Shown here: positions 41,705 through 45,391 of the stretch, one piece after another
How the letters are laid out: each line of letters starts with the position of its first letter
Numbering within the stretch: the first letter of the stretch is position 1
DNA from: Octopus vulgaris
Lineage: Eukaryota
Assembly (NCBI GenBank): GCA_951406725.2
Contig: OX597836.1
Location: 35,030,001-35,094,000 of the forward strand
Length of the DNA: 64,000 bases
Reading direction: 5' to 3'
The notes under the pieces: model-generated
Database searches by the model: none
Told to the model about the DNA's origin: nothing
The model's input: only the letters and a program-made list of their open reading frames with translations
Program-made: the position numbers and the translations under genes

Positions 41705-44398
41705 CGTGCTTATATTGTATAAGTTGGGATTAATAAATGGAAAAATTGATGTAGTTTATATGTGTGTGTGTGGTTTGTATAATCTTGTATATCTAATTAG
41801 AAATATTAAAAGAAATATAAGTGTGTGTATAATGTAAATCGATGGAGATGTGAAAGGCAAGAGAGGGAGAGAAGCTGGTCACCTTCCTTTCATATACTAA
41901 GGTATGAATAGGTAAATAATTAAGGGATGCAGCCTATTTGTAGTACTACAAATTTTCAAGACACACACACATACACATCTTATTAGCTTCTTTCTTTGTT
42001 TCTTTCTTTCTTTTTAAAGTAGATAAAGGTGAGATGGTATAAGTGAAGGATAGGTCGCATTTGGGGGCTGCTATTCACTGCTTAACTCCCACCCCTAAAC
42101 AAACACACACGCCTTTTAGCTTTTGTCTTTCTTTCCTTTTTTTAAAGAAGGTAATGACGTGGCGGGAAAGGTGTAGGATAGGTAGGTAATTTGGGCTGCT
42201 ATTTTCTGCTTATCTCCCACCCACCATCTCAAACACACACACATTTCAATAGCTTTATCATTTCTGTCTTTCTTTCTTTATTTAAATATTTTAAAAAAGG
42301 TAAGTTTCAGCTGGTATAGGTGTGGGGTAGTTAGTTGTTTGTGGCTAGTATTGGCTGCTTAACTCCCAGTCCCCATCACTCTCGCTCTCTCTCTCTCTCT
42401 CTCTCTCTCTCTCTCTCTCTCACTCTCTCTCTCTCTCTCTTTACTTCTTTCTCACACACACACATCCCTATAAGCCCTTACATATACACATGTCTATTAG
42501 GGAAATTTTGTTAATACTGCGTCGTAAGCTTTGAACGCAACAATCCATGCGTGACCTCTTCTGTGAGCGATACGATGGACTTTTACCTTTAAGCATAATA
42601 TATTTAAAGGTATATGCATTATATTTGTTTAAATATAACATATTTTGGGGTGAATATGAAATAAATTCCTTTAAACGAATCGTTTAAAATTGTTCATATA
42701 ATATTTTAATATTGGTATACGGAATAAAAAGTAATAACTTATACGCGTGTGCATACACATATATATGTTTGTGTGTTTGTGTGTTTGTAAGGTAGATGGA
42801 GAATTGATATTGATTTATATACGTTTATATATACATATCTATATATAGTTACATACGCATCTGTAATTATAAGATGTTATACATACATACATACATACAT
42901 ACATACATACATACATACATACATACATACATATATATATATATGTAAAACTGTTTATTTATGTAGATATGTATATATATATATATGTACATACAAGCAT
43001 TTTTATTTTTATATATATGTATACATATGTATAGGTATATATATGTGTGTATATCTATATATATATATGTATACAGATATAAGCATATACATATATACTT
43101 ATATGTATGTATGTATATATATATATATATATATGTATATATATATATATATATATATATATATATATATATATATAAGTATATATATATATATTGGAGA
43201 GTTTACGAAGAAAGCAAAAGACGAAGACAGGTGGTGTACAAAACAAAGTGATGTATTAGTACAACGCTCAGGAATAGAAAAAGTCTTTTACGTTTCTACA
43301 GAAAGGGGCACAGAAAAGACATGGAGAGAAAAAGAATTTGTGTAGTGGCTAACGATCTATCACGGAGGCTATATGTAATTATATATATATATATATATAT
43401 ATATATATATATATATATATATATATATATATATATATATATATATATATATATATATATATATATATATATATATATATATATATATATATATGTATGT
43501 ATATATACACACACGTATGTTTATCTATGTAGATATGTATATATATACGTAGAAATACGTATGTTTATTTATGTATATATGTATACATATATATATGGAC
43601 ATATATATGTGTGTATATCTATGTATATATATATATGTATACAGATATAAGCATATACATCAATCCATATATATATATATATATATATATATATATATAT
43701 ATATATATTTATATACATAATTATGTCCACATATATAAACTTATCTATGTATGTCTATAAATATATATGTATATACATTCATATATATATATATCTGTAT
43801 ACATATATATGTTTTTATATATAACTATATATATATGTATTTATTTCCTTCTTCCCTTCTTTCCTGAGCGTCCAATAATACTTTATTTGCTCCACATCCT
43901 TGCGTTGTTGTTTTTTGTTTTCTTGTTTGGATTAACTATATATATATATATATATATATATATATATATATATATATATATATATATATATATATATATA
44001 TATATATATATATATATATATATATATATATATATATATATATATATATATATATATATTATATATAAGGGCTTAGTAAAATAAATTACTTTGCCACATA
44101 CTGAACTCATTAGAAATAGCAGCTAAAGAAATTTCTTCAGCTATTTCTAATACTTAAAGAAGATCTCTCTCAGATAGTGTTTGCCTAAACAAACTCACAA
44201 AGGTATGGGGGAGAAAACATTAAAAAATCAAGTGCAAAGGTTATTTGAGATCGTACGTTTCTAGATTAGTCAATTCGACATTTCTTGCATATTCGGATTT
44301 GATAGCACTTTTAGTTCGAGCAGAATTCTAGAGGTGATGAGAAGCCGAAAGGGTATGCTCCCGACTTTCAGTGTTCCCAAATCCGATTCAAGGAATTC

Positions 44399-44450
44399 TG
44401 AGCTGACGAAAGAAATGTCGAATTGACAAATCTAGAAACGTACGTTCTCA
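44399..44450 (+). ncRNA. Type I hammerhead ribozyme (loop GTAC), copy 1
   Basis: TGAG-CTGACGA-AAGAAATGTC GAATT GACAAATCTA-GAAA-C-GTAC-G-TT-CTCA. Confidence 0.8.
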
Positions 44451-44954
44451 AATAACCTTTGCACTTGATTTTTTAATGTTTTTTCCCCATACCTTTGTGA
44501 GTTGGTTTAGGCAAACACTATCTGAGAGAGATCTTCTTTAAGTATTAGAAATAGCTGAAGAAATTTCTTTAGCTGCTATTTCTAATGAGTTCAGTATGTG
44601 GCAAAGTAATTTATTTTACTAAGCCCTTATATATAATGTAATATTTTGAATTCGCCTAAAATGGTCCCTTTACATACTGAATACTTGGTGAAATTGATTA
44701 ATAATTAATTAATTTTACCCTCAATTGTTGAAATTATAATTCATCTCTCTCTGCTAAATGCTGCAGTTTTCACCGTTAATACATGGTGTTTGTCAATTTT
44801 AACCCATGCTGGTGGAAAGGGGAGAGCAGAAATTCTTCGCTTGCATATTCGGATTTGATAGCACTTATAGTTCGAGCAGAATTCTAGAGGTGATGAGAAG
44901 CCGAAAGGGTATGCTCCCGACTTTCAGTGTTCCCAAATCCGATTCAAGGAATTC

Positions 44955-45006
44955 TGAGCTGACGAAAGAAATGTCGAATTGACTAATCTAGAAACGTACG
45001 TTCTCA
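44955..45006 (+). ncRNA. Type I hammerhead ribozyme (loop GTAC), copy 2
   Basis: As copy 1, 556 nt downstream. Confidence 0.8.
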
Positions 45007-45391
45007 AATAACCTTTGCACTTGATTTTTTAATGTTTTTTCCCCCATACCTTTGTGAGTTGGTTTAGGCAAACACTATCTGAGAGAGATCTTCTTTAAGT
45101 ATTAGAAATAGCTGAAGAAATTTCTTTAGCTGCTATTTCTAATGAGTTCAGTATGTGGCAAAGTAATTTATTTTACTAAGCCCTTATATATAATGTAATA
45201 TTTTGAATTCGCCTAAAATGGTCCCTTTACATACTGAATACTTGGTGAAATTGATTAATTATTAATTAATTTTACCCTCAATTGTTGAAATTATATATAT
45301 ATATATATATATATATAAATATATATATATATATTTATATATTTATATAGATATATATAGAAAGAAAGTGAGAGAGAGAGAATTAAGTGTG

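Follow-up and report, generated by a model that had tools for sequence, protein, structure and literature searches.

Architecture of the locus

The Octopus vulgaris DNA analyzed here, referred to as the window, is a stretch of 64,000 nt (assembly GCA_951406725.2, contig OX597836.1, positions 35,030,001 to 35,094,000 of the forward strand), and all coordinates are positions in this window. At 44058-45295, bounded by (TA)n tracts on both sides, it contains a tandem element that lacks an open reading frame (ORF), belongs to a high-copy family and is very probably a Penelope-type retrozyme, namely, a non-autonomous element of the type without long terminal repeats (non-LTR). The reading that we favor, with a probability of about 0.6, is that of a recent insertion at a (TA)n break, for which a self-cut 556-nt monomer was circularized and reverse-transcribed from two fixed sites. 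An earlier note on this DNA had described tandem hammerheads and a candidate circular RNA; it recognized neither the high-copy retroelement, whose class had already been described, nor the nature of the inverted piece next to the hammerheads, which is the second arm of the same insertion.

The features of the element are listed in Table 1. The direct repeat, 44284-44738 versus 44840-45295, is identical at 452 of 456 positions, which confirms the head-to-tail arrangement claimed in the earlier note, but the array is composed of one partial and one full unit (approximately 1.8 units) and not of two whole copies. The inverted piece, said to be joined to the direct copies through CTT, was recovered as a 229-nt arm with 98% complementarity to the unit, and it shares 44284-44286 with the direct copy. 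It starts directly past the CTGACGA core and therefore holds no third hammerhead. All three pieces carry one haplotype, and the direct copies differ at 3 of 395 compared positions. The GC content is around 32% in 44001-46000, and the longest ATG-started frame in 44284-45295 has 58 aa, in agreement with the reported absence of an ORF.

Table 1. Features of the element and its immediate flanks (window positions; u, position in the unit)
Feature	Positions	Strand
(TA)n target tract, left flank	43938-44057	no strand
Inverted arm (u228-456), with 3' end site A at its outer end; without hammerhead 5' core	44058-44286	-
CTT overlap linking the 5' ends of both arms	44284-44286	no strand
5'-truncated unit, u102-557; first turn of direct arm	44284-44738	+
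Hammerhead motif 1, type I; predicted cut 44446/44447	44399-44450	+
Predicted 556-nt cut-to-cut monomer, candidate circular RNA; conserved, covarying fold	44447-45002	+
Full 557-nt unit, u1-557; last turn of direct arm	44739-45295	+
TCATCTCTCTCT, 3' strand of predicted long-range stem; initiator role unsupported	44741-44752	+
Hammerhead motif 2, type I; predicted cut 45002/45003	44955-45006	+
3' end site A, u450-463; AU-rich, predicted single-stranded; putative reverse-transcription start	45188-45201	+
"Tail" separating sites A and B (about 95-100 nt apart); contains conserved hairpin	45202-45286	+
3' end site B, u549-557; in and just after predicted hairpin loop; outer end of direct arm	45287-45295	+
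(TA)n target tract, right flank	45296-45359	no strand

A dispersed family of the same unit

A 19-mer over the 3' half of the hammerhead motif has 2,141 exact matches in the genome and a 28-mer of the subfamily of this locus has 96, compared to 0 for both reversed controls, and the motif is therefore not due to chance. A search with a 401-nt query returned 2,343 first-look candidates. The loci are dispersed over many contigs and share the multi-copy nature, the low GC content and the lack of LTR-type ends that characterize retrozymes. We mapped 111 loci, every one of which is made of the same unit: set 1 comprises 71 merged loci of the close subfamily, derived from the 401-nt query and the 28-mer matches, and set 2 was drawn from one contig (C1), where the first 100 listed motif matches fall into 45 loci, 40 of which were used. 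The full units of set 2 are mostly 83-89% identical to the unit of the locus. Since both sets were chosen for holding a motif fragment, they are biased toward arms long enough to reach the motif; at least two motifs are spanned by 25 of the 123 arms of set 1. Among the sequencing runs listed for the unit, none is recorded as RNA. Most of the unit is covered by contigs from four runs that are RNA by conjecture only; strand, ends and circularity are unreadable in these contigs, and they were used as evidence in neither direction.

The hammerhead motif

Each direct copy carries a motif of the layout UGAG CUGACGA A (stem II) A GAAA C GUAC G UU / CUCA. This corroborates the two near-identical hammerheads 556 nt apart that had been reported previously (TGAG-CTGACGA...GAAACGTACGTT/CTCA, with CTGACGA cores starting at 44403 and 44959). 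In both copies the core CUGANGA / GAAA / NUH and its three helices are intact, as is typical of type I hammerheads: stem I has 4 bp, stem II contains an internal loop, and helix III consists of an A-U and a C-G pair with a palindromic GUAC. In motif 1, stem I is formed by UGAG and CUCA, the core CUGACGA lies at 44403-44409 and GAAA at 44435-44438, with a GUAC loop and a GUU triplet, and positions 10.1/11.1 at the base of stem II are A.A (44410/44434). The predicted cut corresponds to u264/265. Three further elements of the window, with motifs at 2160, 16525 and 27292, have the same core, a palindromic tetraloop and different but still-pairing stems I and III; two of the three are also A.A at the base of stem II.

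The 5' core is present in 87 of the 93 motifs of set 2, the remaining 6 breaking off within stem II. Inside an otherwise constant CUGA-GA, position 7 of these 87 motifs is U in 68, A in 12 and C in 7 cases, whereas positions 10.1/11.1 are U.U in 75, A.A in 11 and A-U in a single one; the mismatch therefore persists despite changes in both bases. Because the search query had fixed the 3' half of the motif, this half provides no test of conservation.

A number of results at the level of the ribozyme speak against the favored reading. The Watson-Crick pair that closes stem II in other hammerheads, such as G10.1-C11.1, is replaced by A.A, and all 2,141 genomic matches of the 19-mer have the GUU triplet, its GUC and GUA versions being absent from the genome; given these two features, cleavage may be slow. 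An Rfam scan of the window yielded no match at the gathering score, and no hammerhead family was among the 7 matches obtained up to an E value of 10. In the predicted ensemble of 44380-45020, the stems I of a double hammerhead have probabilities of only 0.39 and 0.14. A fold with two monomeric ribozymes lies 14.5 kcal/mol above the minimum. Furthermore, 8 of 9 Xenopus retrozyme dimers are reported not to cleave (bioRxiv 10.64898/2026.07.22.740005). The isolated 81-nt motif folds no better than its shuffles (z about 0). In the same ensemble, however, the monomeric helix III has a probability of 0.001 as compared to 0.92 for the ACGUACGU-ACGUACGU helix III of the double form, in line with the idea of the earlier note that two GTAC loops might form a double hammerhead in cis. 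A mismatch at the base of stem II has a precedent in the axolotl: HHR_Amex2, with U.U at this place, is described as cleaving, and better so as a dimer (PMC7229834). We read the motif of the octopus element as a weak, dimer-dependent hammerhead with predicted self-cleavage.

Two other candidates were discarded. The weak Rfam matches to mir-31 and mir-9457 correspond to one hairpin and are far under the gathering score, and a second hammerhead-like string around 44336 (TGATGAG...CGAAAG) is without C3 and lies in a segment deleted in 4 of the 22 monomers aligned below.

Fold of the monomer

That the 556-nt monomer is a unit, as stated in the earlier note, is supported computationally, since the cut-to-cut stretch is predicted to be a folding unit. 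Folded as a circle, it has a minimum free energy of -149 kcal/mol, versus -113 +/- 5 for 40 shuffles (z -6.9). A consensus fold of 22 monomers contains 154 pairs, with 99.1% of the cells paired; 13 pairs have changed on both sides, compared to 6.9 for the shuffles, 0 of 500 of which reached this count, and 1-6 for slid controls, figures that are inflated by relatedness and by a structure taken from the same alignment. In this fold stem I closes both ends of the monomer, and a long stem spans u557/u1.

Because of this long stem, u557/u1 would not be an RNA boundary, and TCATCTCTCTCT is a strand of the stem. The earlier note had placed this sequence at the unit junction around 44720, likened it to the start of the element at 2061 and seen an initiator in it. 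It actually lies at 44741-44752, no similarity to the unit could be aligned in the element at 2061 (best E value 0.10), and u1-13 holds 6 of 164 5' ends, no enrichment over the 3.8 expected. Its position is merely that of the base following the downstream 3' end site, its CTCTC tract is predicted to pair within the conserved long stem, and the A of TCAT is replaced in 6 of the 22 monomers, which read TAAT.

Two fixed 3' ends and random 5' ends

The 3' ends of the 123 arms of set 1 cluster at two sites, with 58 at site A and 48 at site B; of the others, 15 are found at different positions, 6 of these in L088, a rearranged locus, and 2 coincide with the edge of a locus. All 106 ends at A or B are followed by (TA)4 within 30 nt, indicating a microsatellite target. 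Both sites are AU-rich and are predicted to lie in loops that flank a conserved hairpin. As an observation apart, the inversion junction of L088 (G000:C7, near 105228790) is folded many times around u330-405.

Head-to-head insertions were found at 74 of the 111 loci, and these combine the two sites almost without exception: among the 68 that could be classified there are 67 A+B, 1 B+B and 0 A+A (binomial p 2e-19 against 0.5). The 43 cases of set 1 include 36 A+B, to which two are added after extension of the left end and one from the flank, leaving 4 unclassified; the 31 of set 2 include 28 A+B, 1 B+B and 2 unclassified. The locus at 44058-45295 is a standard A+B case. At the 42 two-arm junctions of set 1, the arms overlap by at least 2 bases in 14 cases and by one base in 10, while 6 junctions are blunt and 12 contain extra bases; in 31 of 35 simple A+B insertions the arms copy overlapping template.

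Arm lengths and 5' ends were counted for 164 arms, excluding 4 degraded, gapped or compound loci of set 2. More than one unit is covered by 88 arms, more than two by 18 and more than five by 3, the longest measuring 3,410 nt. The 5' ends are evenly spread round the unit (Kolmogorov-Smirnov p 0.75) and do not pile up at the cut site (2 versus 3.2 expected). Partial tandems, an inverted 5' copy, a tail on one end and random 5' truncation are the marks of Penelope-like insertions, and the (TA)n targets, combined with 3' ends that are fixed and 5' ends that are random, point to target-primed reverse transcription from internal sites.

These statistics also bear on the possibility that the element is a satellite whose dispersed copies were multiplied and inverted as DNA, through slippage, unequal crossover or fold-back repair, with a hammerhead-like motif that is decayed or arose by chance. 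The missing Rfam match would suit such an origin, as would the flanks, which are unstable microsatellites, and local amplification also homogenizes units. Yet fixed 3' and random 5' ends, the A+B rule, the (TA)n targeting and the compensatory pairs are signatures of retrotransposition that amplification of DNA does not predict, and the end statistics already largely refute this explanation, which we consider highly improbable.

One haplotype per insertion

The copies of an insertion were compared at 13 polymorphic sites in set 1 (omitting 6 of the 71 loci, five rearranged or degraded and one duplicate) and at 124 polymorphic columns in set 2. In set 1, differences amount to 33 of 536 comparisons within arms and 15 of 480 between arms, all of them from the three loci L004, L116 and L074, as compared to 34% between loci. 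In set 2, 55 of 7,301 comparisons differ within an arm (0.75%) and 72 of 5,623 between opposite arms (1.3%), versus 133,451 of 474,270 between loci (28%). The value for opposite arms includes L167, which consists of two independent neighboring insertions that are about 6% apart. Overall, the distance is approximately 0.4% within arms and loci and 7.5% between loci. Differences within arrays are confined to a single copy in 66 cases, partial in 10 and fixed in all copies in 43. Arms of 5 to more than 6 units are near-clonal at L138, L153 and L168, each in a different haplotype. The A+B rule and the shared haplotype together point to one RNA that was primed once per strand of one break.

The template of insertion

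The lack of a stop at the cut site implies a template that is covalently continuous there, which would be either a circle or an uncut multimer. The circle is favored by the clonal arrays of 5 to more than 6 units in different haplotypes, because linear read-through can only shorten arrays. On balance we lean toward a circular RNA as the template of insertion.

A cleaved linear 556-nt monomer might yield the same products if its ends were held together by stem I and the reverse transcriptase (RT) jumped repeatedly from the 5' end to the 3' end. Non-LTR RTs can jump from end to end, stem I joins both ends of the monomer in the consensus fold, and such jumps would generate clonal multimers just as a circle would. 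Failed jumps, however, should leave 5' ends at the cut, where only the 2 of 164 were found, and no TT/CTC junction indel is present among the listed motif variants of set 1, leaving aside one row whose alignment stops before the junction. This mode of copying is therefore improbable.

A further alternative, which we regard as unlikely but not negligible, is that the template was an uncut linear multimer transcribed from a tandem source locus, with the same twin priming at A and B, the hammerhead being slow or needed at a different stage and any circle a by-product. Passage through the cut site without a stop suits uncut RNA as well as a circle, the atypical motif would fit it, and the mixed arrays of L004 and L116 are compatible with a heterogeneous linear source. 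On the other hand, a daughter arm cannot outgrow its source, yet the arms of L138, L153 and L168 reach the lengths given above; differences between copies of an array are mostly private to one copy; the 5' ends do not accumulate at a transcription start; and a separate homogenizing process would be required.

The argument from long clonal arrays for the circular template is an argument and not a test, as concerted evolution of long source arrays would suffice, and several other observations also weigh on the opposite side. For the anole Poseidon protein, uncut RNA was the dominant substrate in vitro, and hammerhead mutants left insertion unimpaired (PMC11167929). L164 is a B+B insertion, haplotypes are mixed within an arm at L004 and L116, and one site differs at L074. 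Part of the uniformity within loci could be due to gene conversion or to polishing of the assembly. At about 255-794 of the window, a head-to-head pair of a distant family lies in (TA)n with both arms ending no more than 3 nt from the same point, thus without an A+B pattern. As to L004 and L116 themselves, their mixed arrays suggest that the template was switched, that the element homed into a copy already present or that the source was heterogeneous.

A possible route of insertion

The favored reading can be spelled out as a sequence of steps. A copy bearing at least two hammerheads would be transcribed by read-through, and the transcript would be cleaved as a double hammerhead in cis, as its predicted fold suggests. 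A host ligase may then close the circle, as reported in vitro with RtcB for the axolotl and mussel retrozymes. A Penelope protein with RT and GIY-YIG domains, presumably acting in trans, would cut both (TA)n strands, and the end pattern indicates that the two strands are primed on the same RNA, one at site A and one at site B. Each complementary DNA (cDNA) would roll over a random distance, which according to the arm lengths often exceeds one unit, and the two cDNA ends would be joined head to head, often via short overlaps such as those seen at the junctions. More tentatively, and with somewhat less than even confidence, we propose that the family records a full integration rule for elements of the Penelope type, by which a single dimeric enzyme working on a single circular RNA primes both strands of the (TA)n break, each at a different fixed site, and both RTs roll around the same circle.

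L1 twin priming uses both strands of the target as primers on a single RNA, and joining of the resulting cDNA ends gives rise to an inversion. The octopus insertions resemble this process in both respects, but here both priming sites are fixed, the arms overlap in the template, and each can exceed one unit.

Candidate sources of the enzyme

The genome contains intact-looking Penelope-type ORFs of 717-1,091 aa. In one family the open frames have 980-1,091 aa and are flanked by hammerheads with a G-C closing pair; the ORFs of the other have 717 aa. We take these ORFs to be Penelope proteins from the RT motif DD and from a GIY-YIG-like region at the C terminus, and the assignment also rests on the hammerhead-bearing flanking repeats and on many unnamed relatives of 700 aa; the best-scoring named relative of a resident ORF is an Argonauta protein. 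Searches of Pfam and PDB sequences with the ORFs gave no useful match. The RT search produced 33,819 first-look candidates, 79 of which were scored. An enzyme supplied in trans by a Penelope-type element would be expected, but no sequence common to the unit and the two ORF families was detected at 48 loci, a result that does not help this proposal; the only strong match to the unit among these loci, in L033, is a 105-nt fragment of the unit. Matches to Penelope proteins occur at 3 of the 111 mapped loci and are short and broken.

Relation to known systems

The element itself belongs to a known class, of which it is an ordinary member. Hammerhead repeats that are arranged in tandem, lack an ORF and are expressed as circles are described as non-LTR retrozymes (PMC7229834), and their derivation from Penelope elements has been argued (bioRxiv 10.64898/2026.07.22.740005). 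Like the metazoan retrozymes of these two studies, the octopus family has ORF-less, AT-rich tandem units with one type I hammerhead each, occurs as dispersed monomers to multimers and coexists with autonomous Penelope elements. Its unit of 545-570 nt exceeds the 170-400 nt given by Cervera and de la Pena 2020 (PMC7229834) and falls within the 51-972 bp of Li et al. (bioRxiv 10.64898/2026.07.22.740005). It differs from these retrozymes by the GUU triplet, the A.A/U.U switch and the mostly two-armed, head-to-head insertions; moreover, circular RNA was shown for metazoan retrozymes, whereas here the circle is a candidate predicted from the sequence. A plant LTR retrozyme, with a type III hammerhead in its LTRs and a 4-bp target duplication, was rejected on account of the type I topology, the tandem units and the (TA)n ends.

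Several features are shared with endonuclease-bearing Penelope-like elements (anole Poseidon PAc, PMC11167929; PMC3846280; PMC8557442): a partial tandem accompanied by a 5'-truncated copy in inverted orientation; 3' ends at two sites, only one end bearing the tail; targets that are AT-rich or (TA)n; 5' junctions with short overlaps; and a hammerhead located upstream of the 3' ends. In the anole system, two internal RT starts explain the tail, targets are AT-rich and both strands are extended (PMC11167929), and a tail on one of the inverted ends is described for Penelope elements in general (PMC3846280, PMC8557442). In contrast to them, the octopus element has no ORF and a tail of about 95-100 nt as compared to 30-40; its AU-rich start sites would be able to pair with the target, while the start of PAc lies in a stem-loop that is AC-rich and has no homology to the cut DNA. 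Non-autonomous Chlamys elements such as MRC1 (PMC8557442) likewise derive from Penelope elements and form multicopy insertions in head-to-tail order; canonical hammerheads are reported to be absent from Naiad and from most Chlamys elements (PMC8557442).

Circular templates for cDNA of more than unit length were proposed in 2014 and 2020 (PMC4209133, PMC7229834), with no demonstration of the circle as an insertion substrate in the parts compared, and the origin of the tandem and inverted copies and of the tail of Penelope elements is described as open (PMC8557442). Neither a counted A+B rule nor a shared-haplotype test was found in the compared parts of the Penelope and retrozyme literature, and a search of titles and abstract openings, with subscription journals, Repbase and supplements outside its scope, retrieved no prior report of the family or of this rule.

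Other elements of the window

The other hammerhead element, at 2058-2492 (+) and about 2600-3037 (-), has two copies arranged tail to tail around (TA)n, which are 98.9% identical, share the same 5' start and have the orientation opposite to that of the usual head-to-head pair. Its motif at 2160 has A.A at the base of stem II, an AAUU loop and a GUA triplet. Distant relatives of the 3' region of the unit lie at 16271-16525 (-) and about 26920-27600 (-), with hammerheads of their own that have a long stem II, a GCGC loop and a GUC or GUA triplet; the relative at 27 kb is a partial tandem.

A broken, 5'-truncated Penelope-type ORF with a long asparagine-rich linker is located at 8339-9765 (-); its family has 7,881 first-look candidates and open frames of up to 1,091 aa, and asparagine-rich inserts have been described in rotifer Penelopes (PMC3846280). 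Outside the window, L123 (G000:C9:84176000-84184000) looks like an autonomous element; it has an inverted arm of 2.2 kb, and its two outer ends lie in (CA)n, a microsatellite target other than (TA)n. The segment 46943-50058 (+) contains endonuclease-like and RT-like frames and is presumably, judging from its motifs, a broken non-LTR retrotransposon. Two diverged copies of a repeat with subrepeats of 120-150 nt, at 42000-42850 and 45760-46500 (about 3.7 kb apart), flank the element.

Significance

This young, ORF-less family of around 2,000 copies provides counts that constrain the mechanism of insertion, namely, one A and one B end, one haplotype and no stop at the cut site, and it contributes a hammerhead variant overlooked by Rfam. 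The 556-nt substrate suits an existing in vitro assay, and the family-wide insertion pattern makes the model of Penelope and retrozyme integration directly testable. If the proposal of one dimeric enzyme on one circle is true, a single event would account at once for the tandem repeats, for the inverted arm and for the tail on one side, and the family would provide genomic evidence for retrozyme circles as real transposition intermediates.

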